NCBI GenBank assembly: GCA_023250675.1
Contig: JAHFAE010000002.1
Span: 7,491-71,490, forward strand
Length of the DNA stretch: 64,000 bases
Source: Oligoflexia bacterium
Lineage (GTDB): Bacteria; Bdellovibrionota; Bdellovibrionia; JABDDW01
Direction: 5' to 3'
In this document: positions 1-20,510 of the stretch, in pieces
Layout of the letters: every line of letters starts with the position of its first letter
Numbering within the stretch: position 1 is the first letter of the stretch
Translations under genes and position numbers: made by a program
The notes under the pieces: model-generated
The model's input: the letters and a program-made list of their open reading frames with translations, nothing else
What the model was told of the DNA's origin: nothing
Databases searched by the model: none

Positions 1-75
1 GATGAAGCCACACCTGGTCTTATATTCGGGCCCGGGGATCCTGATTTTGAACGCATCGTAAGTCGAATTTCTGAG

Positions 76-1734
76 GTGGGCCGACGTAATATTGAAGACC
101 TTGACATCGGGGCTGCTCCAAAAATTGATAAACTTGTTCGAGGATGGCCGAAAACTTTCAAAGGTAAATACGAAAAACACACAGTTGAAGAAATCACTCC
201 TTGTTTTACTGGTACGGCTCTTGTGCGCATTCGCGTCACAGTGGCCCATGATAGTTTCGAAAGACTCATCGAAGTCAATTGCGCTCCCGGGCAAGACACG
301 GTTTCGCAAAAAGGAGGCCTTGAGCCTCTCCCTAAGTTTATTTCAAATCCAGAAATCTTAGGCATAAGTTCTGAATTTCTTCTTGAACAAACAAAACAAG
401 AGCCGGGTATTGCCGAGTTCTGTCGGTTTTACGGTGAAAGATTTGCCCATGAAGTACAAAACGTCGGAACAAATAAAAGATTAAGAAAAAAACTAGAAGG
501 TGATTTCTTACCCCGTTTTCATATCGAACTTGTGGGTTTCAAAGGTCAGTTTTACCGCCAAGTAAAAGCAAAGATTTCTTATAGTTTAGGTTCAAAAAAA
601 GATTACAGTTCTGAATTGTTAATGATTCCGTCAAAAAACGAAATTACATCGGCAACCAAGATGGGAACATGCGCTGTCACAAAGCAAATCGCCCCTGAAG
701 ATTGTCTTGGACTCTGCGCTATCACTGGCCTAACTGTGATGAAACATTTATTAGAAAAATCAGCTTTAAGTGGTCGGGAAGCTCTGAGTGAAAAACTTGT
801 CACCTGTCATTTAAGCAAAAAGAGACTATTCCCCGATGAAGTTGAAAAGTCTGCTGTCAGCGGCAAATTTGTGGAAAAATCATTGTTAAAAAAATCAGAG
901 ATTAGTGGAAAGCTTGCAGAGCCAGAATATTTCGAAAAATGTTCGTTCACCCGGGAAGAGGCATTAAAAGACGAACTTATGGCAAGTCAAGTTTCAGGTA
1001 AGAAATTTAGAATGGATCATGTGATGAAGTCTGAAGTTTCAGGCAAAGTCGGGCATCCAAAAGAATTTATAGCCTGTGCCGAAACAAATTACCCTCTCAT
1101 TCCATCAGAAGCAGTGCAATGTGAAGTTACGGGTAAAAAAGTTTTGCCCTCAGAGTTAGTAGAATGCTCAGTAACCCAGAAAAAAGTGCTCAAGAGTATC
1201 TGTGTTACAAGTAGCATTTCAAAAAAATGGATTATTAAAAACAAAGCGATCAAGTCAACTACGGGCAAGTTTTGTAGCCCTCAAGAAGCCATGGTTTGCG
1301 ATTGGAGTCATCAAAGGATTCACCCCGAGGATGCAGCGGTCTGCCTCATCACGGGTCTCAGTTTTAATAGAGAATTGATAGATCAGGAGCGAGGCTATTT
1401 TCTTAATCTGTTGAAAGCACTAAGTGGCTCGGTAGTCAAAAAAGATGAGAAGAGATCCTGGGATTCTATAGTCAACCAAGAGAATATCATTTTTGGAACT
1501 TACAAGAAAACCGTTGAATCCGTAGAGAGATCCCCTAAAGGTACGTTAGTCAGTGTTTGCATAAAGCTTAGTTCACGATTTGGCTTGGGCGTAAAATACG
1601 CTGGTTTTATTTATTCATTAAAGGATAAAGTCGTAGTTGGTCAAATTCGTATCGGTAAACGTAAGGGCAGTACTTGGAAAATCGAAACCGAAAAGGAACC
1701 TAGCAACTCGCCACCCCAAAAAGCCGCTTCATGA
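76..1734 (+). CDS. Tandem-repeat protein of unknown function. The central region (~aa 205-420) is about 14 consecutive 15-residue repeats with consensus [C/S]-x-[V/I]-[S/T]-G-K-x-[V/F]-x-x-x-E-[L/F]-[V/I]-x, flanked by globular N- and C-terminal regions. The start is GTG at 76, but the frame stays open to the window's 5' edge, so the gene may begin upstream of the window.
   Basis: 552-aa ORF; repeats such as SAVSGKFVEKSLLKK / SEISGKLAEPEYFEK / SEVSGKVGHPKEFIA / CEVTGKKVLPSELVE are read directly from the translation. Frame 1 has no stop between nt 1 and 76. Confidence 0.6.
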   Translation: MGRRNIEDLDIGAAPKIDKLVRGWPKTFKGKYEKHTVEEITPCFTGTALVRIRVTVAHDSFERLIEVNCAPGQDTVSQKGGLEPLPKFISNPEILGISSEFLLEQTKQEPGIAEFCRFYGERFAHEVQNVGTNKRLRKKLEGDFLPRFHIELVGFKGQFYRQVKAKISYSLGSKKDYSSELLMIPSKNEITSATKMGTCAVTKQIAPEDCLGLCAITGLTVMKHLLEKSALSGREALSEKLVTCHLSKKRLFPDEVEKSAVSGKFVEKSLLKKSEISGKLAEPEYFEKCSFTREEALKDELMASQVSGKKFRMDHVMKSEVSGKVGHPKEFIACAETNYPLIPSEAVQCEVTGKKVLPSELVECSVTQKKVLKSICVTSSISKKWIIKNKAIKSTTGKFCSPQEAMVCDWSHQRIHPEDAAVCLITGLSFNRELIDQERGYFLNLLKALSGSVVKKDEKRSWDSIVNQENIIFGTYKKTVESVERSPKGTLVSVCIKLSSRFGLGVKYAGFIYSLKDKVVVGQIRIGKRKGSTWKIETEKEPSNSPPQKAAS

Positions 1735-1871
1735 TGTCTTTGGAATTTAATAAAACCGACAAACTCTTTTCCAATTATGTCAAAAGTTGAGTGGTTTCGA
1801 TTGGATGCACCGTATCAAGTTTCAGTTTTGGCTGCCTAGACCGATACTATTAATATCAAGGACACCAGTTT

Positions 1872-3107
1872 TTGGGCGGAGGTTTATATATGTTTGATAC
1901 AAGCACTTGGATGACGGTTGTTTCTCTCATCTTTTTCCCATCTTATTTCCAAGGCCCTCTTTTGAATTTTGCTTGGGGTGCTCACGATCCAGAAATGATT
2001 GCCATGGCTAAGAGAATTTTTATTCTCCTTCCGTGTTGTGCCCTGATCGCTGCATGTTGGGCTACGACAGTTGCTCTAATCAGCGTGATCGTAAGGCAAA
2101 ATCGAAGAGAATTCATAACTTATCTTTTTGTTACTTGGTGGGACATGGGAAAGTGCATTCTATCTTTTTGGGGTGGCTGTTTTAAATTTTGTATGTTCGC
2201 CATTCACTCTGTATTTCTCTTTTCTCGTCTGATCGTTGTGGGTTTACTCGTTTTTATTAGCGATATATTGTCAGCTCCTTTCAAAGTAGTTCAAGTGGCA
2301 GGTGCAAGTGCTTTTGGTGCGGGATTACCATGGATTGCAATTCTTTTAACTCTAGGTTGGACACTTCTTGAAGCCACAATATTTACTTTCGTTACAACGG
2401 GTCTAGTTACAGACACCCTTTCTAGTGTTTCAGGGATGACGATTAGTCCCCGTGCCATTCGCTTCCCACTGTTTGGTTTTATGCTCTTTATCGTCTTAGG
2501 AAGCTACTCGGTTTTGCTCACACTAGGTGATGCACTCAAAACACGAAATGTAACTACAATAGTTAAAATTGCCGTGGTTGAAGTCATCGCCATGATGGTC
2601 GAAGTAATTTTCTTGTATCGAGAGTTTGTTGATGCATTGGTGCCTTGGTTTGCCCAGCATTCTGGTGGCAATTTTTCACTGGGAATTACAGGGACTTTAG
2701 CCATTGCTTCTTTCACCTGGATGGGTATTAGAAGCATGTCCTGGTTCCTGTTCGCCCAAGCAGGTACCCCCGTTATCATGTCGGTCATTGGCGGCCGAGG
2801 ATTTGCAACTAAGGGCGCTGGGGGCGGAAAAGATATTTCATTTGATATGAAATTGAAATCCATCGAAAGAATGAAAACAGAAATGAAATGGATTATCGAG
2901 TACGGAGATAATTTTTTAGGGGCTTTCTTATTTCCGCCACTTCAAATTGTGGCGGCAACCATTAATTTCTTTGTTTTAGTCATTACTTCAGATCATCTGT
3001 TTGAAATTCCTTTCACCGACTTTAAATCAATATATACAACACGACCTTCTTTGAGAAGAGTCACAGGAACGTCTCGAGGAATCTTCAATGACAAGAAATC
3101 AGCTTAA
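1872..3107 (+). CDS. Polytopic integral membrane protein (about 9-10 predicted TM helices) of unknown function, with a Gly-rich cytoplasmic loop (GGRGFATKGAGGGKD).
   Basis: 411-aa ORF with many long hydrophobic segments. Co-directional with the flanking genes and overlapping the downstream gene by 20 nt. Confidence 0.6.
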   Translation: MGGGLYMFDTSTWMTVVSLIFFPSYFQGPLLNFAWGAHDPEMIAMAKRIFILLPCCALIAACWATTVALISVIVRQNRREFITYLFVTWWDMGKCILSFWGGCFKFCMFAIHSVFLFSRLIVVGLLVFISDILSAPFKVVQVAGASAFGAGLPWIAILLTLGWTLLEATIFTFVTTGLVTDTLSSVSGMTISPRAIRFPLFGFMLFIVLGSYSVLLTLGDALKTRNVTTIVKIAVVEVIAMMVEVIFLYREFVDALVPWFAQHSGGNFSLGITGTLAIASFTWMGIRSMSWFLFAQAGTPVIMSVIGGRGFATKGAGGGKDISFDMKLKSIERMKTEMKWIIEYGDNFLGAFLFPPLQIVAATINFFVLVITSDHLFEIPFTDFKSIYTTRPSLRRVTGTSRGIFNDKKSA

Positions 3108-3861
3108 GAAGATCGTTCTAATCGTCGGTTTTTCTTTATTCACTTTTGCCGGTGTCTCTACGGCAGAAGAGAAGGACCCTCCCAGACTCACGATGTTTAT
3201 TGGTGTAGACGTCAGCGGTTCATTTATGAAGAGCCGTTACTTCGACGACTCTCTGAATTTTCTAGCCCACTACATTTATGGGCATCTCAAAGGTATTGCG
3301 GGGTTAGATGTTCCCAAGATTTTGTTTGTGGGATCTTTAGGGGGAATGAAGGGCGGAGAGCCTCAAACCATGTACCCTATTCAAAATTTCGAGCATAAGT
3401 CAGTTGAGGGAATCCACAGCGAACTGAAAAGATTATTCCCCAAAACACATAATGACCGCTACACTGATTTTAACGCGTTTTTTAAACAGGCCCAGACTAT
3501 ATGCAAATCAAAAGGTCTCATACTGCGTCCGATTTCTATCGTGCTCATTAGTGACGGCGAACCCGATTACCCAGGACAAAAGGGCCACGATGTGAGCAAA
3601 ATAGAACTACAACCCTTTGAACTGATTTCTCGAAATGTGACCATAAGACTTCTGTATACAGACGCCAAAATTGGGGACCAGTGGTCAACCAAAATTAAGA
3701 GATCGAGGGTAAAGGTTTTAACCCAAGACGCCAAAGTTATGGTGTCGTGGAAGGACGCAGCCATTTTACAACCAGGTAAGAGTTTCCAAGACCAATCCCG
3801 TTTCTTTGATTGGCTTAAAGACAATGTGGATTCGGATGCTCATTCCCAAACTGTAGACTAG
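3088..3861 (+). CDS. Secreted/periplasmic von Willebrand factor type A (vWA) domain protein with a MIDAS motif.
   Basis: N-terminal signal peptide (LIVGFSLFTFAGVSTA). DxSxS MIDAS motif in FIGVDVSGSF. Conserved vWA strand ISIVLISDGEPDYPG. Confidence 0.6.
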   Translation: MTRNQLKKIVLIVGFSLFTFAGVSTAEEKDPPRLTMFIGVDVSGSFMKSRYFDDSLNFLAHYIYGHLKGIAGLDVPKILFVGSLGGMKGGEPQTMYPIQNFEHKSVEGIHSELKRLFPKTHNDRYTDFNAFFKQAQTICKSKGLILRPISIVLISDGEPDYPGQKGHDVSKIELQPFELISRNVTIRLLYTDAKIGDQWSTKIKRSRVKVLTQDAKVMVSWKDAAILQPGKSFQDQSRFFDWLKDNVDSDAHSQTVD

Positions 3862-3874
3862 TTGAGGCGAAGAA

Positions 3875-5227
3875 TTAGTTGAGGCTGGTCCCTTTTATTA
3901 CTTCAACACTATTGGCAATATCCCAAAGATAAGTCTGATATAGATCGCGAATAATACTTGGTCGGGTGGTAAAGAGCATAGTCTCAATGTGTTTATCCCA
4001 TGAATTTGGCGAGGCATTGTAGGTTCCTGCTCCTCCCTCACCGATGTAAATGGAGGGCTCCTGGCCGATTTTTAGAGCCTCCGAAGTCTCTCGTCGCAAA
4101 AGTAAAAAGGCTTTTGCATGCATGGGACCTTTGGGGCCAGAATACTCATAAAGATGGGCCGGATTGTTTGATGAGAGAGTGAGAAGGGGGCCATAGGACT
4201 GCCTTGCTTCACGATACAATTTATTGGCAATGACCCGTCTTGTGAGGGGTTCAAAAATAAAAAACAGCTGTTTGACTAAATTTTCTTTTGAATTAGAAAG
4301 AATCGTAATCTTAACTCCTCGTTTTGCAGCACCTCGCAATGCTTTCAAATGGGGTGGTTGAACTCTAAAAGAAAAAGATTGCCAATATATTTGATCTCCT
4401 GCTTTCGCACTATCGATGAGCTGGGCAATCTTATCATTTATTGGTGTTTGCCCATTTCTTAACCAAGGGGCCTGCAAGTAAAATTCGTCGTTAAAATCTT
4501 GGGGTACTTGAGAATAGTCATATATTTTTTTTGCAGTTCCAGTGCACTTTGTGATTTTTTTTAATGTGTCAAAGACCCAATAAAATTCTTGGGAAACTTT
4601 TTGAGCTATGGGCCCAGAAACGTAGATGTCCGTATCTCTCCACGATTGAACATGTTTTGATTTACCAAGCATCCAGTTATAACCGCCAGTAAAAACATGC
4701 CAACCATCAACAACCATTACTTTTGCATGACTTAATTTTTCTAAATTAATGGTCCATATGGCTTTTAATGATTTTTTGGCAAATTCGAAGAAATAAGGAG
4801 GTGTACCAAAAAAACGAATATCCACCCCGGCTTTTATCATGCGATGAATTTCGGCACGGGTGGTGGGAGGATTACCCCAATAATCAGTAAATACCTTTAC
4901 TTCAATACCTGCTCGGTGTTTTTCGATTAATATATCGGCAAGACTTTTACCTATTTCGTCGTGGGCGTACCATGCGTCAGGTTTAATGGTAAAAGTTGAA
5001 ATGAGAATGGAGTATTTGGCGTGTTTCAAAACTTCAAATTTATGCTTAAACGTTTCGTCAGCCGAAGTGTAAATGGCCGCATTTGAGGTAAGCTGAGTCC
5101 CCTCTATTCTCACGGCGGAGCCTGTAACATTCAAATTTTCTCGGCAATCGGACCCCGAAGAAAAGGCCGTTTCTCCATGGGACTGGAGAAAGAGCACACT
5201 TAACAAGACTTGAACTAAACTTTTCAT
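3875..5227 (-). CDS. Secreted phospholipase D family protein (HKD superfamily). The first HKD motif is intact; the second is divergent.
   Basis: Signal peptide MKSLVQVLLSVLFLQSHG. HAKVMVVDGWHVFTGGYN matches HxKxxxxDxxxxxxGGxN. Second copy reads MHAKAFLLL...GEGGAGTYN. Confidence 0.65.
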   Translation of the reverse strand: MKSLVQVLLSVLFLQSHGETAFSSGSDCRENLNVTGSAVRIEGTQLTSNAAIYTSADETFKHKFEVLKHAKYSILISTFTIKPDAWYAHDEIGKSLADILIEKHRAGIEVKVFTDYWGNPPTTRAEIHRMIKAGVDIRFFGTPPYFFEFAKKSLKAIWTINLEKLSHAKVMVVDGWHVFTGGYNWMLGKSKHVQSWRDTDIYVSGPIAQKVSQEFYWVFDTLKKITKCTGTAKKIYDYSQVPQDFNDEFYLQAPWLRNGQTPINDKIAQLIDSAKAGDQIYWQSFSFRVQPPHLKALRGAAKRGVKITILSNSKENLVKQLFFIFEPLTRRVIANKLYREARQSYGPLLTLSSNNPAHLYEYSGPKGPMHAKAFLLLRRETSEALKIGQEPSIYIGEGGAGTYNASPNSWDKHIETMLFTTRPSIIRDLYQTYLWDIANSVEVIKGTSLN

Positions 5228-5302: not shown

Positions 5303-6268
5303 ATGCATTCAATACAATTCAAAAAGAGCCTGGCGCTGGTATTAGTCGTTGTTGCTTTTACCTATGCAACGGCATTGCAAAATGATTTTGTCAATTTTGA
5401 TGATGAGCTTATACTCTTAGAGAATAAACCGGTCAAAGATTTTGATATTTATACCATTTTTACAAAGCCTTTGGCTGAAGACTTTGTCCCCCTTACACTT
5501 CTGACATTTGCCATTGAATATAAGTTCTTTGGACTAAAGCCCTTTATTTACCACCTGGATAACATTATTCTTCATCTACTCAATTGCATTTTGGTATTTT
5601 TTCTCATCATTGAGCTTTCAGGTGAAGATACGAGAATGAGTTTCATTTCAAGCTTGCTCTTTGGGATTCATCCCCTTCATGTAGAATCGGTTAACTGGGT
5701 GGCCGAGAGAAAAGATGTTTTATCCTGTTTTTTCTACCTTTTAAGCTTATTGGTCTATTTGAGGTATTCGAAAACTAAGAAAGTCAGTTTTTATTGGGGT
5801 GCTTTCATTTTTGGAGCAATGGCCATTCTAGCTAAATCTTTTGCCCTGACTCTACCCTTTGTTTTCTTACTTATTGACTATTACCAAGGCGTTAAAATTG
5901 AACTAAAAATAATAATAGAAAAAATTCCTCTTTTTATCGTGTCTTTTTTGAGTATTTTGATTGCTTGGCCTCTTTTGCATGTGATGAGTAACACAGAGAG
6001 CGCAATTTCTATTCAAAATATTATATACGTTGTACCCGCTTTTTGTTTTTACATCAGTCGGTCCGTATTGCCCGTTGGGCTCAGTGTTCTCTACGAAACC
6101 GGGGCCACTCGAATAGGTTTTCTAGCCTATGTCATAACGGGATTGGTAATTTGGGGAATAAATGAATTTGTAAAAACTCATCAGTCTCGAAAAAACCTTA
6201 TCATTTTTGGCTTGGGCTTTTTTCTCATATCTGGTCTCCCTGCATGTCAATTTATCAGAATAAAATGA
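5303..6268 (+). CDS. N-terminal (membrane, DUF1736/GT-C-like) fragment of a TMTC-like O-mannosyltransferase-family protein, terminated by an in-frame TGA. Probably a pseudogene fragment.
   Basis: FVNFDDE...HPLHVESVNWVAERKDVLSCFFYLLSL matches the DUF1736 region of TMTC-like proteins. Same reading frame as the 6335..7006 ORF. The conserved ADRYFYVPSVG motif is encoded between the TGA and the next Met. Confidence 0.55.
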   Translation: MHSIQFKKSLALVLVVVAFTYATALQNDFVNFDDELILLENKPVKDFDIYTIFTKPLAEDFVPLTLLTFAIEYKFFGLKPFIYHLDNIILHLLNCILVFFLIIELSGEDTRMSFISSLLFGIHPLHVESVNWVAERKDVLSCFFYLLSLLVYLRYSKTKKVSFYWGAFIFGAMAILAKSFALTLPFVFLLIDYYQGVKIELKIIIEKIPLFIVSFLSILIAWPLLHVMSNTESAISIQNIIYVVPAFCFYISRSVLPVGLSVLYETGATRIGFLAYVITGLVIWGINEFVKTHQSRKNLIIFGLGFFLISGLPACQFIRIK

Positions 6269-6334: not shown

Positions 6335-7006
6335 ATGCTTCGCGATTTTTCAAATAAATTATTTAAGCCTTTACTTGTCTTAGTATCTCTATTTTTCGTG
6401 GTACTCAGTGTTGAACGAGTTAGCATTTGGCGAAATACGGGAACGCTATGGGCCGATGTGGTTTCGAAATACCCCACAAGCTCTTATGCGCAGAGAAATT
6501 TGGGAACTTACCTGCATAAGACAGGCAACATGACAGAAGCAAGAGTTCACCTTGAAACGGCCTTAAGACTCAAACCCGATATTCCTGATGCTCATTACAA
6601 CTTAGGTGTAATTTGGATGGACCAAGGTGATTTTGACAAAGCTCTTGAGGAGTTTGATTTAGCCACTGGCTATAAACCAGAATTTGTAGAACCCTTAGCA
6701 ACTTCAGCTTTTATTTATTCTAAAAAAGGCGATCTTGAAAAATCTATTGAGCTCTATAAAAAGGCGCTTATTTGGGATCCTCAAGGGGGATATCTGCATT
6801 TAAATTTAGCCATCGTCTATAACATGAAGGGTGAAAAAGACTTAGCTCTAAATGAATGTTTGCAGGCTATTAAATTAGAATCAAAGTTAGTGAAGGCCCA
6901 TGAAATGCTTGGTCAAATCTACAAAGAATTCGGGAGACAAGCTGACGCTGATCAAGAGTTCATTGTCGCCGATAATTTAGTCAAAGAGGGTAGGGGGATC
7001 CGTTGA
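6335..7006 (+). CDS. C-terminal TPR-repeat fragment of the same TMTC-like gene (in frame with 5303..6268).
   Basis: TPR-like repeats (AHYNLGVIWMDQGDFDKALEEF..., GYLHLNLAIVYNMKGEKDLAL...). Frame continuity with the upstream ORF across a single TGA at 6266-6268. Confidence 0.55.
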   Translation: MLRDFSNKLFKPLLVLVSLFFVVLSVERVSIWRNTGTLWADVVSKYPTSSYAQRNLGTYLHKTGNMTEARVHLETALRLKPDIPDAHYNLGVIWMDQGDFDKALEEFDLATGYKPEFVEPLATSAFIYSKKGDLEKSIELYKKALIWDPQGGYLHLNLAIVYNMKGEKDLALNECLQAIKLESKLVKAHEMLGQIYKEFGRQADADQEFIVADNLVKEGRGIR

Positions 7007-8211
7007 AGCAATTATTGAAAGCTCCAGTTATTGTGGCAGCACTTGGTTATTTCGTCGACATCTATGATTTGCTTTTATTTAACATTGTTCGCGTGCCGAG
7101 CCTTCAATCCATCGGTCTTCACGGTCAAGAATTAAAGATGGGACTTTATCTTAATAACACTCAAATGACGGGGATGATGATAGGCGGAGTTATGTGGGGA
7201 ATCCTCGGAGACAAGAGGGGTAGGCTCTCTGTACTCTTCGGATCTATATTTATTTATTCTGCAGCAAATCTTGCAAATGCTTACGTGACCACATTTCAAC
7301 AGTATGCTTTTCTAAGGTTTGTGGCTGGTCTTGGTTTGGCGGGGGAACTAGGTGCAGGAATAACTCTTGTTTCAGAAATAATTCCAAAACATATGCGAGG
7401 TCTAGGTACCATGTTCGTGGCTACAGTTGGCGTGTCAGGCGCTGTAGTGGCAGCTTTGCTGGCTGAAGTTTTCACATGGCGCACTTGCTATATTATTGGT
7501 GGAGTGCTGGGGCTACTTCTCTTGTTATTACGGATAGGAGTGAGCGAGTCTGGGATGTTTGATAAATTAAAATCCAAAAAAATAAAAAGAGGAAATTTCT
7601 TTCAGCTCTTTATCAGGGCAGACCGACGTCTCCGCTATTTTTGTTGTATCCTCATCGGAATTCCCATTTGGTATATTATCGGGATTCTCGTGGCCTATGC
7701 CCCCGAGTTCAGTAATGCCATCGGTGTCGTTGGAAACATTACTTCTTCCCGGGCCATCATGTTTTGTTACTCAGGCCTTATATTGGGAGACTTTTCTAGC
7801 GGGTATTTGAGCCAGTTATTAGAAAGTCGCAGAAAATCTGTGGCATGGTACTTAGTTATTTCATCGATATTTGTCTTTTGTTATCTCTTCATGCCTATTA
7901 AGTCTGAAAAATTATTTTATGGAGTCTGTTTTGGTTTAGGAATCGCAGCAGGCTATTGGGCAGTTCTGGTGACCATTGCTGTAGAACAATTTGGAACAGA
8001 CTTGCGCGCGACGGCGGGGACTACAGTTCCTAATTTTGTGAGAGGATCTGTAGTACCCATGAGTTTGGCGTTTCTAGCCTTAAAACCTTTTCTTGGATTG
8101 ATTTGGGCTGCAGCCGCCGTAGGAATTGTGGTGCTTTCTATCGCATCCATATCGTTGTTTGGACTCCAAGAAACCTTCGGGCGTGATTTAGATTTTACAG
8201 AAAATACTTAA
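7003..8211 (+). CDS. Major facilitator superfamily (MFS) transporter.
   Basis: 402 aa with 12 predicted TM helices and MFS-like loop motifs (GDKRGR). Start overlaps the upstream stop (ATGA-type coupling). Confidence 0.6.
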   Translation: MKQLLKAPVIVAALGYFVDIYDLLLFNIVRVPSLQSIGLHGQELKMGLYLNNTQMTGMMIGGVMWGILGDKRGRLSVLFGSIFIYSAANLANAYVTTFQQYAFLRFVAGLGLAGELGAGITLVSEIIPKHMRGLGTMFVATVGVSGAVVAALLAEVFTWRTCYIIGGVLGLLLLLLRIGVSESGMFDKLKSKKIKRGNFFQLFIRADRRLRYFCCILIGIPIWYIIGILVAYAPEFSNAIGVVGNITSSRAIMFCYSGLILGDFSSGYLSQLLESRRKSVAWYLVISSIFVFCYLFMPIKSEKLFYGVCFGLGIAAGYWAVLVTIAVEQFGTDLRATAGTTVPNFVRGSVVPMSLAFLALKPFLGLIWAAAAVGIVVLSIASISLFGLQETFGRDLDFTENT

Positions 8212-8678: not shown

Positions 8679-9563
8679 TCAAAAGACCATCATTTTCATG
8701 CAGAAAACCGAGCCGCCTGATTTTAGAAATTCGGAGGTGTCTAAAGCGTGAACATTAAAACCATTTTTCAAAAGTTTCTTTTCAAAGTCGGCATTGCCAC
8801 GCTGAAGCAAAACGTCATGATCATTGGCGCCATGACAATTCGCGGTAAAACTTTTGGAGCATTCTTCTAACCCGGTTTCAATTACATTTTCAAAAACGCT
8901 GCGAATCAGTTTCATCGCTTGGGGTGCCATTGCATCGGGTTGAACAACGGCAGTTTTCGAGTCGATGATAGAAAAGCAAGTATCTAAATGATAAAACTCG
9001 GGGCGAGTGAGCGGAACAAGAATGACATCCCAACCGGTGATTTCTGAAATCTCATTGTAAACTCCTGGATCAGTTCTTGGCCCACATCCTCCCCAAATAA
9101 GTGGGCGATCGGGGTGCTTGAATGCATCTCCGTTTCCCTCAAAACTAAATTTTTCAGAAACGTGATAAATTTCATAGCCCTGATTTTCGTACCAATTTTC
9201 AAAAATACGGACCTCTTCTTTTCTAAAATCAGATCTCATATTACTGATGATGACAGCCGCTCGATTTGTTTTTTGGTTCCAAAACGGAAAACTCTGATTG
9301 GCGCAAAATACAAAGTCTGGGTAGCCTTCAAGTCCCTGTAGAATTTTAACGTTAAACCCAAGTTCTAAATATTTATCGTAAACCGCTTTCCATTGAATTT
9401 GAGCCAATTCTTTATTTGGCTTATTCAGGTGTCCGTCTGCGGTTTTCATATAGGGATTAATCGCATATAAAATATCGTAGTACTCAGGATTTGCCATCAA
9501 GATTTTAGAGGGTAATCTCGTTTGATGTAGTGGCGGAATTTGATCCAGGGTTTCGATGATCAT
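8679..9563 (-). CDS. Amidinotransferase/DDAH/arginine-deiminase superfamily protein.
   Basis: 294 aa with a C-terminal catalytic-Cys context (GGSVFCMKMM), typical of the guanidino-group-modifying enzyme fold. Translationally coupled (ATGA overlap) with the downstream paralogue. Confidence 0.5.
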   Translation of the reverse strand: MIIETLDQIPPLHQTRLPSKILMANPEYYDILYAINPYMKTADGHLNKPNKELAQIQWKAVYDKYLELGFNVKILQGLEGYPDFVFCANQSFPFWNQKTNRAAVIISNMRSDFRKEEVRIFENWYENQGYEIYHVSEKFSFEGNGDAFKHPDRPLIWGGCGPRTDPGVYNEISEITGWDVILVPLTRPEFYHLDTCFSIIDSKTAVVQPDAMAPQAMKLIRSVFENVIETGLEECSKSFTANCHGANDHDVLLQRGNADFEKKLLKNGFNVHALDTSEFLKSGGSVFCMKMMVF

Positions 9564-10342
9564 AGATGACTTTCAAAAATAAGGCTTCGACACGTAAGGC
9601 CGCCTTCAGCTTTCGCAAATTCAAAATTTGGCACTTGGATCAATTTAAACCCTGCATTTTCTATCAGTTTAGTGGTTTTTGGATATTCTTGGCCATAGAT
9701 AAGTTTATCGTCTATGAGCAAGGCGTTTGCCGCAAAGTGTTCTTCTGGGTTTATATTTATGACTTCAAACTCTTTAAATTTTTCCATGTCAATCCACTTT
9801 GGATTTGCCAATACAAAACCGTTTCCTAAAAACGTAATTCCACTTTTTAAATGCAAGCAATCTTGAATATCAACAGCGATAACTTGATAATCACAGGGCA
9901 GCACAAGGTTTTGCAATTGAGTTATGCCAGAATCATTAGTTCTTGCCGAACGTCCCACGTAGAGACGACGCCCGATCATTAATACATCTCCTCCATCAAG
10001 AGTGCCCGGTGATGCAATGGTTCCTATAACTTTTCTCTTTGATAATAATATATTGGCAATACTTGGAACTTCGATGAGTCGTGAAGGAGTCCCAGGCCTA
10101 CAAATGACCGCAATTTCGTTTAGTACGATTGCCCCATCCTCTACAAAGACTCCGTCGGGCGCAAAGTTCAAGGCCTCGAGAAAACTAACCTGTATACCCA
10201 ATGTTGAAAGCGTATGACAGTAATACTCATGTTGTTTCACCAGGAGATGAAAATCAATTGGCCGTCTTTCTAAAAAACTAAGTTCACAATTGACAATAGA
10301 AGGAGAAGGCTTTCGGACAAGGGCTTCGATTCGACTGTTCAT
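9560..10342 (-). CDS. Dimethylarginine dimethylaminohydrolase (DDAH)-like amidinotransferase-superfamily protein.
   Basis: 260 aa with a DGGDVL motif and a C-terminal GGLTCRSL catalytic cysteine. Confidence 0.55.
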   Translation of the reverse strand: MNSRIEALVRKPSPSIVNCELSFLERRPIDFHLLVKQHEYYCHTLSTLGIQVSFLEALNFAPDGVFVEDGAIVLNEIAVICRPGTPSRLIEVPSIANILLSKRKVIGTIASPGTLDGGDVLMIGRRLYVGRSARTNDSGITQLQNLVLPCDYQVIAVDIQDCLHLKSGITFLGNGFVLANPKWIDMEKFKEFEVININPEEHFAANALLIDDKLIYGQEYPKTTKLIENAGFKLIQVPNFEFAKAEGGLTCRSLIFESHL

Positions 10343-10873: not shown

Positions 10874-11527
10874 ATGACAAACTATTTTGAGACAAGAATG
10901 GCTCCCCACGTGGCAAGGGATGCTGTTTGGAATCACATCACTCGTTTCTTAGAACCCTATTGGGAGTTAAATTCTAAAAGTCATGTTTTAGAACTTGGAA
11001 CGGGCTACGGTGCTTGGATTAAGTCTATCAAGGCAAATCAAAGAGAAGCTTTGGATTCTTATCCAGAACTTCACCAATTATTTCAAAAAAATGGAATAAA
11101 AGATGTGGCAGCACATGTGGGTGATTGCACGGATCTAGGCCGATGGAAAAGTGAAACATTAGATTTAGTTCTTGCCAGTAATTTGCTTGAACATCTTGAC
11201 CATGATGAGTTAAATTCTTGCATCAAAGAAATTTTTAGAATCTTAAAGCCCGGTGGACAACTTTGTCTGGTACAGCCCAACTTCGCTCTTTGTCCTAAAG
11301 AATATTTTGATGACTATACCCATAAAACTGTCTTTACCCATGTGAGTTTAAGTGATTTTGTGTCAGCCCATGGTTTTCAAGTCATTAAATTGTGGAAGAG
11401 GTTTTTGCCCCTTACTTTAAAGTCAGCCGGATCTCGGTTAACATTTTTAGTACCGTTTTATCTTCGAAGTCCCATTAAACCATTGGCGGGGCAAATGTGC
11501 CTCTTGGCTCAACGAAGAGACCATTAG
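10874..11527 (+). CDS. Class I SAM-dependent methyltransferase.
   Basis: Motif I LELGTGYGAW and the post-I LKPGG motif. Confidence 0.6.
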   Translation: MTNYFETRMAPHVARDAVWNHITRFLEPYWELNSKSHVLELGTGYGAWIKSIKANQREALDSYPELHQLFQKNGIKDVAAHVGDCTDLGRWKSETLDLVLASNLLEHLDHDELNSCIKEIFRILKPGGQLCLVQPNFALCPKEYFDDYTHKTVFTHVSLSDFVSAHGFQVIKLWKRFLPLTLKSAGSRLTFLVPFYLRSPIKPLAGQMCLLAQRRDH

Positions 11528-13221
11528 TGGCAGTACTCTCGGTCATTGCGGTCTATATTATTCTTTGTGTTTTGCAGTGGCATCGCCTTCCTATTCAAGA
11601 TGAGATTTTTTTTCATCGAGCTGCTTTCAAATGGGCCGTTGGTGGACCTCAGGCCGACGGGCTTTGGCACACACCTTTTTATTTAGAGGGCCTTAGAATT
11701 TGGCAAAAGCTTTTTGGCATCGCCGACCCAGGACGCCAAGGAAGTGTATTTATTCTTAGATCGTTTGGCGTATTTACCGGTTTATTGACCGCGTTCTTAT
11801 TTTTAAAAGGTGCAAAAAGAAAAGAAGGATTTCTGAGCTCTTACCCAGCAATAGTTTTAGCGCTCTTGTTATTAAATCCTTATTTTATTCAGTGCTCCTT
11901 ACTTTTAGATATCGACAATACTCTTATGATTCCGGCACTTGTTTTGTGGGTTTTGGCCGTATTGAAGTGGGACGATGCTAAAAATGGAAGCTGGAGTCAG
12001 ACCGTCGTCATAGCCTTTATTTCAGCTTTTGCGCTCATGGTAAAAGAGCTAACGCCGCTTATCTTAATACCAACTTGGATTTGTTATAGTTTTCTTCGGC
12101 CTTGGAGAAAACCTGCTGAGTCTTCATTCACACATATCATTCAATCTATTATTGGAATTATTTTGGGACTCTCTTTATTTGCATTAGTCTTGATTATTTG
12201 GACTCAAGCTCATCATATGAGTTGGCGTGAACCATTGGAATTAACATTGGGAAAGTCCAAAGGTAAGATCGGTCAGTATACCCCTTGGGACGTTCTTGGA
12301 ATTGTTCGGTGGATTTTTCTTAGTTACCTACCTCTTGTTTGGCTTCAAATTCCAACCCTGTTTTTTTTGACAAAGATGGCTCTAGAAAAAATTTCAGCTC
12401 ATAAATTTTTTTCTATCCCTCTTCCCTTCTTGTTCGCCTTGGCCGTTTATCTTTGCTATAGCTGGCTTATCCAAGGCTCGTTTTATTTTGCCAAGTACTC
12501 AGCAGTTGTTTGGCCTATGCTAGTCTTGGATTTTTCTATGGTGATCCCGTTGAATCTAAAAAAAGCCACTGAATGTTTAAATGAGTTAAAGAATTCAAAA
12601 AAATTCATTCTTGGTTTTCTTTTTGTTTGGCTTTTTGGTATCTGTTTTTTCAATTGTTTTGAACCCCTTTACATTATCGAAATGAGGCAAGATCCAAATC
12701 TTAATAAATTGGGGTGGCACTTTGTTTCAATAGCGTTGCCTATTTTTCTTATTTTAATGGGCGTCAAAATTATAAAGTATCAAGAAAAGGGGATCCAGAA
12801 TGCCGTTGTGGTTTTCGGGATCATTGTCACTTTTTTAGGACATTCTTTAAGCCAAGCCACCATGGATTCGCCGGGTTACCTGTTTGGCGAAGAGGGGCTC
12901 GCCCAAACCATTGAAGAGGTTAAGCAACTTAAAATCAAAATTTCAAGGGGCAAACCTGTATTGACAACGGCTGTTGATGTTCAATGGGCATTTCAAAACG
13001 ACGCTAAACTTTTGGTTTTTGAAAAAGAAGATTATTTAAAAATATTAGATCAATACGATATTTTAGTTTCAAGAACCTACGATAATTATTCAGTACGATA
13101 TAATCCACAGTGGCTAACGGACGTCAATTCTAGATTTAGATGTCACCAGGTTATAAATTTGCCTCGCGAGCGATTTGAATGGTGGTGGAAGCCATTAGCT
13201 AAATGTGAAGAAGGCCTTTAA
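11497..13221 (+). CDS. GT-C family polytopic membrane glycosyltransferase (ArnT/PMT-like). GTG start.
   Basis: 574 aa with many TM helices and an N-terminal region resembling 4-amino-arabinose / dolichyl-phosphate-mannose transferases. Gene neighbourhood includes a GT2 polyprenyl-phosphate sugar synthase. Confidence 0.5.
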   Translation: MPLGSTKRPLVAVLSVIAVYIILCVLQWHRLPIQDEIFFHRAAFKWAVGGPQADGLWHTPFYLEGLRIWQKLFGIADPGRQGSVFILRSFGVFTGLLTAFLFLKGAKRKEGFLSSYPAIVLALLLLNPYFIQCSLLLDIDNTLMIPALVLWVLAVLKWDDAKNGSWSQTVVIAFISAFALMVKELTPLILIPTWICYSFLRPWRKPAESSFTHIIQSIIGIILGLSLFALVLIIWTQAHHMSWREPLELTLGKSKGKIGQYTPWDVLGIVRWIFLSYLPLVWLQIPTLFFLTKMALEKISAHKFFSIPLPFLFALAVYLCYSWLIQGSFYFAKYSAVVWPMLVLDFSMVIPLNLKKATECLNELKNSKKFILGFLFVWLFGICFFNCFEPLYIIEMRQDPNLNKLGWHFVSIALPIFLILMGVKIIKYQEKGIQNAVVVFGIIVTFLGHSLSQATMDSPGYLFGEEGLAQTIEEVKQLKIKISRGKPVLTTAVDVQWAFQNDAKLLVFEKEDYLKILDQYDILVSRTYDNYSVRYNPQWLTDVNSRFRCHQVINLPRERFEWWWKPLAKCEEGL

Positions 13222-17537: not shown

Positions 17538-20510
17538 TTAAATAAGGGGGCTAATAGCCTCAGATACCGGTGCGAATCCCCGACGCAACGTATTTTCGGT
17601 TATGGTCTTTGGTTCCATAAATTGGAGAAGATAATCGGGCCCTCCGGCTTTGCTTCCAACGCCAGACATTTTAAATCCACCAAAGGGATGCCGTCCCACT
17701 ATGGCGCCCGTAATAGCTCTGTTAATATAAAGATTGCCCACTTCAAACTCATCTTTGGCCTTTTGAATATGGGTGGGGCTTCTAGTGTAAACTCCCCCTG
17801 TTAGGGCAAACTCCGTGTTATTGGCAATTTGAAGAGCTTCATCAAAATTCTTAGCAGAAATTACAGCTAAGACGGGTCCAAAAATTTCTTCATTGGCAAG
17901 GCGAGCTGTGGGTTTTATTTCTGTGAATATGGTTGGCGGAACAAAGAATCCTTCTTTGGGTGCAATTCCTTGAAAGGCCAATTGGCCTTCTGATTTTCCC
18001 ACTTCAATTATTGCTAATATTTTCTTCTGGGCCTCTCCATCAATAACGGGTCCAATGGCCGCCGACGCATTCTCAGGATTTTGAACGACCAGACTTCTAG
18101 CTGCTTCGATAAGTCGATGAACAAACTTTTCGTAATTTTCTTCTAAGACGATAACTCTTGAACAGGCAGAACATTTCTGACCTTGAAATCCAAAGGCAGA
18201 GTGAAGTGTGCCAAGGACCGCTTCATCTAGATCAGCGTCACTGTCAATGATGATGGCGTTCTTGCCTCCCATTTCGGCTACTACTTTTTTTACAGATCTT
18301 TGGCCCGGTTGGGTTTGGCCAGATTTATTGATAATGCTTAGTCCTACATCTTTTGAACCCGTGAACACGATAAAATCTATTTGCTTGTGATTGACGAGAT
18401 AATCGCCGACTTCTTCTCCTCGTCCCGGTAAAAAATTTACTACGCCTGGTAAGAGCCCCGCTTCTAATAATATAGACATGAATTCAGAAGCAATGACGGA
18501 GGATTGCTCTGCGGGTTTCATGATGACCGAGTTGCCGCAAATGGCACTGCCTACGACCATTCCGGCTAAAATCGCAAGGGGGAAATTCCACGGGGCTATA
18601 ACAACTCCCACACCTCGCGGTTGGTAAGAATAAAAACTTTCTTCACCGGGAATCAAACTTGTGGGGCTCGCCTTAGCAAATTTTTTGATCTGTTCAGAAT
18701 AATAGCGGCAAAAATCGATGGCCTCGGCTACTTCGCCATCGGCTTCACGCCATGTTTTTCCAACTTCTAGAATGGCCAAAGCCATAAGTTCAAATTTTCT
18801 TTGAATCATAATGGCGGCCGCTTTTTCAAAAACAGCACAGCGTTCATCGGCTGATTTTTGAGACCAAATTTTCTGAGACGTTTTGGCAGCTGCAAGGGCT
18901 AGCTCTGCTTCTGGTTGTTTGGCCAAAGCCATTTTCCCGATTACAAGTGTAGGTGATGATGGACAAACTGACAGATGTTCTTCAGAGGTCTTAATTTCTT
19001 TTTTGCCAATCACGAGGGGATGGTATTTCCCCAAATCTTTTTTTACTTGAACCAAAGCGTTTGTAAGAGCTTGACGATTTAAGAGCAAATTAAAATCAAC
19101 AGGTGGTTCGTTTACAAAAAAATGGTTGGCCGTCGTATGGCTAGGAGAATGTGTCAGTGAAGCCGGATCTCTAAGTAATTCGGATGTAGAAGTATTTGCT
19201 GAAAATTTGGCTCTTAAAAAGGACTCGTTAGAGGTGTTTTCTAGGAGTCTTCGAACCAAGTACGCCATTCCGGGAATGAGCTCACCAATGGGTGCATATT
19301 CCCGCACTCTCAATCCCATTTTAACAAGTGCTTTTTTAATTGGCTCGGCCATGCCGTATAGCATTTGTATTTCGAAACTTCGTTTGTCGATTCCAAGTTT
19401 TTCCGCCTGCACCAGAACATTGGCGATGGAGCGGATATTATGGGACCCGAACGCGGGCTTAATAAATTTGTGATTTTGAAGCATCAGCGTCGACAATATT
19501 TCATAGTTGGCATCGGTCTCACTTTTATTAGTAAAGACAGGAATGGGCCATCCCCTTTGCCCCGCCAAAACAGTTTCATAGTCCCAATAGGCCCCTTTCA
19601 CCAGCCGAATTGTTATTTTGCCTTGGCGCTTCTTAGCCCATTCGATGAGGCTTTCAAGATCTTTTTGAGAATCTTTGAGGTAGGCTTGAATGACAATTCC
19701 AACGTTGTGATGATCTTTAAATTCCTCTTCTTCCATTAAACTTTTAAATAGAGCCAAAGTGAGATCTTTATGAAAATAAGACTCCATATCAAGATTAATA
19801 AAGACATCTAGTTCCATGGCTCTTCGAACGATTAGACGAAGTTTTTCATTTACAGAGTTGATGGAATTCACAGGATCAATGGAATCAAATTGAGAATAAA
19901 GAGAGCTGGCCTTTACAGAAACATTGACCTTAGAAATTTCACCAGAAGAGTCTTCATCTATATGGGGAAGTTTGGGCCATTTTTGAGAACTCTTCCAGAG
20001 TTTATCAATGAGTTCCATGTATCGTTTTTGATAGGCCCAGGCTTCAGCTTCGCTCACAGCGGCCTCACCTAATAGATCAGCCGTGAAACAAAGTTTTTCG
20101 GCCCTCATTTTTTCTAGGTTTTTAATGGCATCTTCTGGTGTGCTACCGGTGATAAACATTTTTGCCATTTGAGTGACATTTTTTTTGATACTAGAAGCAA
20201 GCAGTCCTGGAGCCAGAGCTCCCAGCCCCAAACCCCAACCCAAAATAGAAGGCATTTCTTGGCCCTCTCCTGAGAAATACTCTTTAAGGTGTCTAGCGAC
20301 TTCGTCTGAGGAATCAAGATAGGGGAGTACATCGACGAACCGAAACATTTGAGTTTTAAATTTTTCGTTTTGCATGGACCAATCCATAATTCGTCCATAC
20401 CACCAATCTTTGTTAAATATAGAACTTGTCTCATTTTCCATGAGATCAAATATCTGCTGTCCTCGGGCGAAGATTTCAGCTTGAATGTTTTGGATATCGG
20501 AATTGGCCAT
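17538..20510 (-). CDS. putA: Bifunctional proline dehydrogenase / delta-1-pyrroline-5-carboxylate dehydrogenase (PutA, short form lacking the DNA-binding domain).
   Basis: 990 aa with an N-terminal PRODH barrel region and a C-terminal ALDH domain carrying the catalytic Cys context FGFQGQKCSACSRV and the EAGLLPGVVNFLPGRG motif. Confidence 0.8.
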   Translation of the reverse strand: MANSDIQNIQAEIFARGQQIFDLMENETSSIFNKDWWYGRIMDWSMQNEKFKTQMFRFVDVLPYLDSSDEVARHLKEYFSGEGQEMPSILGWGLGLGALAPGLLASSIKKNVTQMAKMFITGSTPEDAIKNLEKMRAEKLCFTADLLGEAAVSEAEAWAYQKRYMELIDKLWKSSQKWPKLPHIDEDSSGEISKVNVSVKASSLYSQFDSIDPVNSINSVNEKLRLIVRRAMELDVFINLDMESYFHKDLTLALFKSLMEEEEFKDHHNVGIVIQAYLKDSQKDLESLIEWAKKRQGKITIRLVKGAYWDYETVLAGQRGWPIPVFTNKSETDANYEILSTLMLQNHKFIKPAFGSHNIRSIANVLVQAEKLGIDKRSFEIQMLYGMAEPIKKALVKMGLRVREYAPIGELIPGMAYLVRRLLENTSNESFLRAKFSANTSTSELLRDPASLTHSPSHTTANHFFVNEPPVDFNLLLNRQALTNALVQVKKDLGKYHPLVIGKKEIKTSEEHLSVCPSSPTLVIGKMALAKQPEAELALAAAKTSQKIWSQKSADERCAVFEKAAAIMIQRKFELMALAILEVGKTWREADGEVAEAIDFCRYYSEQIKKFAKASPTSLIPGEESFYSYQPRGVGVVIAPWNFPLAILAGMVVGSAICGNSVIMKPAEQSSVIASEFMSILLEAGLLPGVVNFLPGRGEEVGDYLVNHKQIDFIVFTGSKDVGLSIINKSGQTQPGQRSVKKVVAEMGGKNAIIIDSDADLDEAVLGTLHSAFGFQGQKCSACSRVIVLEENYEKFVHRLIEAARSLVVQNPENASAAIGPVIDGEAQKKILAIIEVGKSEGQLAFQGIAPKEGFFVPPTIFTEIKPTARLANEEIFGPVLAVISAKNFDEALQIANNTEFALTGGVYTRSPTHIQKAKDEFEVGNLYINRAITGAIVGRHPFGGFKMSGVGSKAGGPDYLLQFMEPKTITENTLRRGFAPVSEAISPLI

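Follow-up and report, generated by a model that had tools for sequence, protein, structure and literature searches.

The first 3,861 nucleotides (nt) of a 64,000-nt stretch of an Oligoflexia bacterium genome (contig JAHFAE010000002.1, positions 7,491 to 71,490; hereafter the window) carry three open reading frames (ORF1 to ORF3), for which a first-pass annotation had proposed one dedicated envelope module of three genes. We found that this three-gene module is not real. Instead, region 1-3861 is probably made of two independent units: the tail of an SNF2-family helicase (ORF1) and a two-gene operon (ORF2 and ORF3) encoding a membrane protein and a protein with a von Willebrand factor A (vWA) domain and its metal-ion-dependent adhesion site (MIDAS). 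The two-gene operon and the vWA assignment are the parts of which we are most certain, with very high confidence. As described earlier, the three ORFs do lie on the same strand in the first 3.9 kb of the window. The features discussed below, in nt of the window and amino acids (aa) of each product, are:

1 to 1734, plus strand: ORF1, 577 codons and a stop (1732-1734), 3′ part of an SNF2-family helicase gene truncated at the 5′ end of the window.
1 to 669 (aa 1-223), plus strand: globular region of the helicase tail, alpha+beta, with a helix packed against long curved beta-hairpins in each of two units; VAHDSYER and EFCRFY are near-invariant motifs.
670 to 1389 (aa 224-463), plus strand: repeat array, ~16 units each 15 residues long, from autocorrelation, logo and AlphaFold2.
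1390 to 1731 (aa 464-577), plus strand: terminal region, short helices followed by a five-stranded antiparallel beta-sheet (about aa 500-560), the last ~17 residues disordered, from AlphaFold2; conserved in homologues.
1735 to 1889, no strand: intergenic spacer from the stop of the helicase gene to the probable start of ORF2, with GGAGG at 1878-1882.
1890 to 3107 (or from TTG 1872), plus strand: ORF2, first operon gene, polytopic inner-membrane protein of 405 aa (ATG 1890) or 411 aa.
3088 to 3861, plus strand: ORF3, second operon gene, secreted vWA-fold protein with a signal peptide at about aa 1-26.
3208 to 3222, plus strand: MIDAS D41-V-S43-G-S45 (DxSxS); D41, S43, G44 and S45 invariant in 39 sequences.
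3463 to 3465, plus strand: MIDAS T126 (in TDFNAFF), invariant in the alignment of the ORF3 family (A1).
3550 to 3558, plus strand: MIDAS residues S155-D156-G157, which close the strand ISIVLISDG, invariant in A1; model strand E149-154 lies just before them.
3875 to 5227, minus strand: phospholipase D (PLD)-family gene with two HKD motifs, two PLDc_2 stretches and an N-terminal signal-like segment; convergent on ORF3, the two stops 13 nt apart.

As judged by sequence alignment, ORF1 is the C-terminal 577 residues, the last 47%, of an SNF2-family ATPase of about 1,230 aa. Its residues 1-559 align with residues 650-1225 of a 1,230-aa homologue (L126) at 40% identity (BLASTP, E 3e-143). L126 carries SNF2-rel_dom at 75-312 and Helicase_C at 378-482, followed by a last stretch of ~700 residues with no recognisable domain. 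Since ORF1 matches only residues 650-1225 of this protein, about 650 codons including the ATPase core are expected upstream of the window. This fits the earlier remark that the gene runs past the 5′ edge: frame 1 is open to base 1 and its first residues already align to full-length homologues. Contigs retrieved by exact-protein look-up, with a view to reading further upstream, were all shorter and stop within or ahead of the helicase. The 62 homologues collected (~40% identity) are longer than ORF1 and carry Helicase_C N-terminal to the matched part, and at one locus (L002) a SNF2-rel_dom/ResIII/DEAD fragment precedes the ORF1-homologue gene. A metagenome scan for the helicase returned 341 relatives, of which 80 loci were kept for neighbourhood counts; full helicase ORFs cluster at 1,224-1,258 aa in these loci. 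Both the SNF2-rel and the Helicase_C lobes are present in full-length homologues, and the PADLOC models BrxHI, DrmD, HmaA, DpdE and ZorD match these proteins over the ATPase core only (E 1e-53 to 1e-20); in the window copy, the ~650 N-terminal residues precede base 1. As the tail of an SNF2-family helicase, ORF1 is therefore a cytoplasmic nucleic-acid enzyme and not an envelope protein as had been proposed.

ORF1 itself gave no Pfam, NCBIfam or PADLOC match at E<=1, and the helicase tail returned nothing significant in PDB sequence and profile searches nor any PDB match at E<=1e-3 with Foldseek. The earlier view of the three proteins as uncharacterised held in scans of Pfam, NCBIfam and PADLOC, where none fell into a named family. 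A stand-alone 549-aa copy of the tail without the ATPase part was seen in a 4.2-Mb genome (L003:10001-11650), adjoining genes of the recombinase, resolvase and DDE-transposase types; it is probably a truncated remnant.

A profile of ORF2 was scanned against one genome per GTDB species. Relatives were found in 433 genomes, and the best 80 loci were used for neighbourhood counts. At 79 of these 80 loci the ORF2 homologue is followed immediately, in the same order and on the same strand, by an ORF3 homologue, the single miss being a contig end. The two genes are separated by a median of 3 nt, with an overlap in 26 of 61 pairs, a spacing typical of translationally coupled subunits; in the window, the 20-nt overlap reported previously (3088-3107) was found again. 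Each protein has ~850-1,030 homologues at ~45-60% identity (for ORF2, 1,027 at ~45-57%). Carriers include Oligoflexia/Bdellovibrionota, Calditrichota, Zixibacteria, Latescibacterota, Balneolales, Ignavibacteria and other Bacteroidota, Elusimicrobiota, FCPU426 and Eisenbacteria. The operon is vertically widespread in diderm bacteria (Bacteroidota-related phyla of the Fibrobacteres-Chlorobi-Bacteroidetes group, among them Calditrichota and Zixibacteria, Bdellovibrionota and others) and self-contained. No third conserved gene was found in the 80 pair loci, where the best other cluster consisted of generic response-regulator receivers at scattered positions. The flanks are housekeeping genes (TyrRS, topoisomerase I, SmpB, response regulators) with no recurrent partner. 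A small PilZ-domain gene was observed at five loci (L007, L013, L024, L041 and L048, at least four of them from Calditrichota metagenome-assembled genomes), divergent from the ORF2 homologue, on the opposite strand and ~0.6-1.1 kb upstream of it, hinting that the pair may be under lineage-specific control by c-di-GMP. A literature search for the ORF2-ORF3 pair found nothing.

The ORF2 start at ATG 1890 is favoured over TTG 1872 by the Shine-Dalgarno sequence GGAGG (1878-1882) and by public gene callers, which recorded the 405-aa protein. A length of 405 aa is thus more probable than the 411 aa given before, and the ORF1-ORF2 gap more probably measures 155 nt than 137 nt. In this gap, a promoter and terminator scan gave nothing above shuffled expectation and there was no Rfam match.

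The synteny of the three genes breaks in both directions. The helicase tail, the PLD gene and the other window neighbours were found at 0 of the 80 ORF2/ORF3 loci and, reciprocally, ORF2, ORF3 and PLD at 0 of the 80 helicase loci. The genome whose pair is most similar (57-61% identity) has the two genes between fabH-fabD-fabG-acpP-fabF/rpiB/glyA and nrdR/nusB, with neither helicase nor PLD. The helicase and the PLD gene adjoin the pair only in this lineage. A single envelope module that includes the repeat protein, as first proposed, could be argued from the fact that the genes are co-directional and close together in the window and that none of the three has a named family. We consider it very improbable: ORF1 is the tail of a cytoplasmic helicase, co-occurrence is nil both ways, the nearest relative of the pair has no helicase, and the neighbourhoods differ in type, being rich in mobile and defence genes around the helicase and in housekeeping genes around the pair. 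What stands of the idea of a dedicated module is that ORF3 works with ORF2; ORF1 is not a member. The PLD gene, said to be convergent on the trio, was confirmed at 3875-5227 on the minus strand with its signal-like N-terminal segment, and a related arrangement can be imagined in which the helicase tail and this PLD form a DISARM- or Mokosh-like defence system (SNF2 DrmD with PLD DrmC) bracketing the membrane pair. The PLD does show weak matches to NF038319 (E 1.5e-10), PADLOC DrmC (2e-6) and MkoB (8e-4), and the helicase core of the homologues matches the DrmD, BrxHI and ZorD models. Nevertheless, the PLD reaches 41 bits against a DrmC cut-off of 133, scores better as a cardiolipin-synthase-like protein and has a signal-like N-terminus; it is missing from all 80 helicase loci, no DrmA, DrmB or methylase is visible downstream, and the PADLOC matches are confined to the generic SNF2 core. 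Such a system is hardly credible here. Any link of the PLD to the helicase or to the pair was rejected, since this PLD is missing from all 160 related loci (80 ORF2/ORF3 and 80 helicase); its likeness to cardiolipin synthase or DrmC is itself seen at sub-threshold scores only.

The tandem repeat of 15 aa noticed in ORF1 is genuine. Its BLOSUM62 autocorrelation over aa 224-478, set against 2,000 shuffles, is strongest at a lag of 15 residues (z=11), with further maxima at 30 (z=8.5) and 45 (z=9). Thirteen units are strictly in register (aa 224-418), with ~3 more beyond, and follow the consensus [C/S]-x-[V/I/L]-[S/T]-G-[K/R]-x-[V/A]-L-x-x-E-L-x-x. The motif is kept across the family. Seven of the 13 in-register units begin with Cys, as counted before; the strict alternation of Cys and Ser units was not found, the actual order being C C S C S S C S S C C C S. 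A logo built on 13 units x 62 sequences shows position 1 to be Cys (54%) or Ser (46%) and nothing else, with Ser/Thr at position 4 (98%), Gly at position 5 (71%) and Lys/Arg at position 6 (61%). The choice between C and S is specific to the unit and conserved family-wide in the 62 sequences. No tandem repeat was detected at the DNA level, so the array is an old, diverged protein repeat.

An AlphaFold2 model of ORF1, computed from the 62-sequence alignment, has a mean predicted local distance difference test (pLDDT) score of 90.6, rising to ~95-96 in the repeat region. Each unit of the rod-like array is modelled as a 6-residue loop ([C/S]xx[S/T]G[K/R]), a 3-residue strand, a 3-residue turn and a second 3-residue strand (secondary-structure pattern EEE-HHH-EEE-6 loop). 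Near-invariant Cys/His clusters flank the array (C224/C235/C239/H249 and C425/C433/H441/C448) and, to judge from these residues, might bind metal at both of its ends. In the first alpha+beta unit, the near-invariant V-A-H-D-S-[Y/F]-E-R (window 241-261, aa 81-87) sits at or just after the hairpin turn between strands E56-81 and E84-94; it does not resemble any known nuclease or ATPase motif.

When the 240-residue array was searched with phmmer against 1.84 billion cluster representatives (E<=1e-3), 390 proteins were retrieved. The longer ones have 1,208-2,098 aa, with arrays often starting near residue 880-900; matches as short as 228 aa look like fragments. The 2,098-aa P0305 has an SNF2 N-terminus and ~73 units, P0024 carries extra units and the window copy has one fewer in the alignment. 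With units ranging from ~16 to ~73 among relatives (~4-fold), the array is a length-variable module. Occasional 16-residue units shift the register in P0305 and other array relatives. Two known architectures were rejected. A zinc-ribbon array is incompatible with one C or S per 15-aa unit, the lack of CxxC pairs, Ser in 46% of units and several units that are invariantly Ser; a pentapeptide-repeat beta-helix is incompatible with a period of 15 instead of 5 and with loop-strand-turn-strand units. A marginal profile match of the array to MfpA (E 0.025) came with no structural match, comparison with solved repeat structures gave no significant structural match, and a literature search on the repeat found nothing. 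The [C/S]xx[S/T]G[K/R] repeat is apparently undescribed.

The only recurrent neighbour of the helicase is a DUF2779/RNase_H_2/PDDEXK_1 gene, directly adjacent and on the same strand at 15 of the 80 loci. Its product (L087:11709-13217 and 14 other loci) is a ~500-aa protein with a Cas4/PD-(D/E)XK-like N-terminus and an RNase-H-like domain, and is a candidate nuclease partner of the helicase. No such gene follows ORF1 in the window. Other neighbours are scattered: RhuM, ArdC, HepT, GmrSD, UvrD-type helicases, methylases, integrases, recombinases, PIN/MazE and Fic. A role of the helicase in defence or mobile-element biology is suggested by the neighbourhood alone and is tentative. SNF2 proteins are double-stranded DNA translocases; by analogy, the helicase would be one too. 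The array would serve as a length-variable scaffold or spacer, and the tail would probably recognise a target or a partner, with the array fixing the distance. The family would probably act on foreign or mobile DNA, sometimes with the adjacent DUF2779 nuclease.

ORF3 was described as a signal-peptide protein with an intact MIDAS, and both features are present. In A1 (39 ORF3-family sequences), the MIDAS residues D41, S43, S45, T126 and D156 are invariant, and the protein has the Rossmann-like alpha/beta fold of vWA domains. Its structural neighbours include adhesins (Mfa5, TRAP, integrin I-domains and pilus tip proteins). At the sequence level, the window protein gave no Pfam or NCBIfam vWA match at E<=1 and an empty PDB sequence-profile search, and its relatives showed only sub-threshold matches to VWA_2 (3 of 39, best E 0.01), VWA and VWA_3. 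Alignment of the ORF3 profile by hhalign to a CD11b I-domain sequence placed DVSGS on DGSGS, without reaching significance. ORF3 is thus a divergent new family within the vWA superfamily, outside curated models at the sequence level. At least 90% of its relatives have a lipobox Cys (column C23 of A1). The window copy (..FTFAGVSTAEE..) does not, nor do P0065 and P0079 (the latter from a Bacteriovoracia metagenome-assembled genome); all three have a plain signal peptide instead. That some lineages have lost the lipid anchor is in keeping with the retention of ORF3 by a membrane partner, ORF2.

For ORF2, ~8-9 hydrophobic segments were counted rather than the ~10 transmembrane (TM) segments announced. 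The strongly conserved EVxFLYREFVDSLVPWFAQ is accompanied by the motifs WFLFAxxGTP and PPLQ, and three glutamates within hydrophobic segments (E167, E237 and E244) are invariant in alignment A2. Loops 180-196 and 253-268 are acidic and poor in K/R, hold the invariant D181 and D254, and are on these sequence grounds probably periplasmic. The Gly-rich loop pointed out earlier is present and falls in the sole poorly conserved loop, which is K/R-rich. ORF2 gave no Pfam, NCBIfam or PADLOC match at E<=1 and nothing significant in PDB searches; a member-wise Pfam scan of its relatives returned sub-threshold noise only (DUF2304 in 5 of 43), and a scan of viral contigs found none. It appears from these searches to be an orphan membrane family with no detectable relatives outside its own family.

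How the two proteins act can be proposed with some reserve. Where vWA proteins have been characterised (integrin I-domains, midasin with its ubiquitin-like (UBL) domain ligand, CaV alpha2-delta), it is the protein ligand that completes the MIDAS metal, by means of an acidic side chain. By the same principle, ORF3 may dock through its MIDAS on the periplasmic face of ORF2, where an acidic ORF2 residue would complete the bound divalent cation, invariant D181 and D254 being the candidates. In this model ORF2 would resemble a transporter or channel, with ORF3 as its structural, auxiliary or regulatory subunit. This docking is a plausible working model, and we give it somewhat less than even credence. 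One competitor takes ORF3 for a ligand or substratum adhesin like CglB, a vWA outer-membrane lipoprotein adhesin of Myxococcus gliding (PMC9946355), with ORF2 as its dedicated export, anchoring or maturation factor and not the target of the MIDAS. That most ORF3 homologues are lipoproteins with an intact MIDAS, that adhesins figure among the structural neighbours and that CglB sets a precedent for a vWA lipoprotein adhesin (PMC9946355) would suit this role. However, ORF3 is a bare vWA domain of ~230 residues with no stalk or added domains, it keeps ~50% identity across phyla without the variability typical of surface adhesins, lipidation is lost in the window copy, P0065 and P0079, and no gliding, pilus or secretion genes are linked; we regard an adhesin as unlikely. 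Uptake or sensing of a divalent cation (Mg/Mn/Ca) by the pair, with the transported or sensed metal bound at the MIDAS and the ORF2 glutamates lining the ion path, would account for the invariance of the MIDAS residues and of E167, E237 and E244. Yet at known MIDAS sites the metal serves to bind a protein ligand and is not itself delivered, as established for integrin I-domains, midasin and alpha2-delta, and no metal-responsive regulators or riboswitches are linked to the pair. Uptake or sensing has, in our view, little chance of being right. A MoxR-type system was rejected since no ATPase is linked: AAA/MoxR is absent from the 25 most frequent Pfam families in 148 pair-flanking proteins.

Taken together, these observations can be joined in one picture, which is a speculative one. 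The array would be an undescribed repeat fold, a rigid rod of evolving length (~16 to ~73 units) that serves as a spacer or ruler and links an SNF2 translocase to a recognition domain at the terminus; such proteins would make up a new class of single-gene systems directed at foreign or mobile DNA, with occasional aid from a DUF2779 nuclease. Independently, ORF2-ORF3 would be a new channel or transporter fold with ORF3 as its dedicated vWA/MIDAS auxiliary subunit. Several points weigh against our main account of the two units. On the helicase side, most loci have no fixed partner at all, a scan of viral contigs for the tail found no relative, and the window lacks the ATPase core. The repeat region is also nearly charge-neutral (36 K+R vs 32 D+E), which argues against simple electrostatic binding of DNA. 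On the side of the pair, the K/R-rich C-terminal tail of ORF2 conflicts with a simple 9-TM model, the physical interaction of ORF2 with ORF3 is deduced from gene order only, and divalent-metal binding at the MIDAS is a prediction from motif and fold alone.

Downstream of the PLD gene, the window continues with:

5303 to 6268, plus strand: 321-aa polytopic membrane protein with no Pfam match.
6335 to 7006, plus strand: tetratricopeptide repeat (TPR) protein.
7003 to 8211, plus strand: major facilitator superfamily transporter, overlapping the TPR gene.

The membrane protein and the TPR protein might together be a split glycosyltransferase-like protein. Further along, positions 8679-10342 (minus strand) hold two tandem genes of the amidinotransferase superfamily with a 4-nt overlap, one with DDAH_eukar and ADI matches and the other with ADI only; a 574-aa ORF with no Pfam family lies at 11497-13221 (plus strand), and a canonical trifunctional PutA (PutA_N, Pro_dh, Aldedh) is encoded at 17538-20510 (minus strand). 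ARAGORN found no tRNA or tmRNA gene in the 64-kb window.

The outcome corrects an operon call that was plausible but wrong, and leaves two well-defined unknowns. Neither answers a long-standing question, and their value is moderate. The helicase family is an SNF2 ATPase family (~390 clusters at 50% identity) with a confidently modelled repeat array that has no solved counterpart and varies ~4-fold in length; it is of interest for repeat-protein structure and, given its neighbourhoods, possibly for defence or mobile-element biology. At least 433 species-level genomes, drawn from many diderm phyla, carry the pair, which keeps ~50% identity between phyla and is invisible to Pfam, NCBIfam and PADLOC. 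The pair is a conserved envelope component, for which the MIDAS offers a simple genetic handle.

Known systems comparable to ORF3 include the vWA domains of CaV alpha2-delta and of CLCA1, the latter acting on TMEM16A, which are vWA/MIDAS auxiliary subunits of membrane proteins. ORF3 has no sequence relationship to these and a bacterial context, ORF2 has no detectable channel homology and the ORF2-ORF3 contact is only predicted. MoxR-vWA systems (BatA/BatB, NorD with NorQ, ViaA with RavA, Borrelia BB0172/BB0173) are defined by an adjacent AAA+ MoxR ATPase, with DUF58 in bat operons, whereas no ATPase or third gene is conserved in the 80 ORF2/ORF3 loci and ORF2 is a separate, unrelated polypeptide of 8-9 TM segments. 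CglB, compared with ORF3 by description only, is likewise a vWA/MIDAS lipoprotein of a predatory or related diderm lineage, but belongs to the multi-gene Glt machinery, while ORF3 has ORF2 as its only partner.

As for the repeat, zinc-knuckle and zinc-ribbon hairpins are CxxC-paired modules with four ligands, in contrast to the single Cys or Ser of the ORF1 units, and the pentapeptide beta-helix (MfpA) has a period of 5 (A(D/N)LXX) with ~20 residues per coil, compared to 15 in the ORF1 array. The SNF2 helicases of defence systems (DrmD of DISARM, BrxHI/HII, ZorD, HmaA, DpdE) resemble the ORF1 homologues over the ATPase core and share neighbourhoods rich in mobile-element and defence genes. However, these matches end near residue 530. 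No PADLOC, Pfam or NCBIfam model covers the ~700-aa tail or the array within it, and the partners that accompany DISARM, BREX, Zorya and Dpd helicases (DrmA/B/C and a methylase; BrxA-C/PglX/PglZ; ZorA-C; DpdA-K) are absent from ORF1-family loci. The helicase is a new form of defence-island-type SNF2 protein, endowed with an apparently undescribed repeat.

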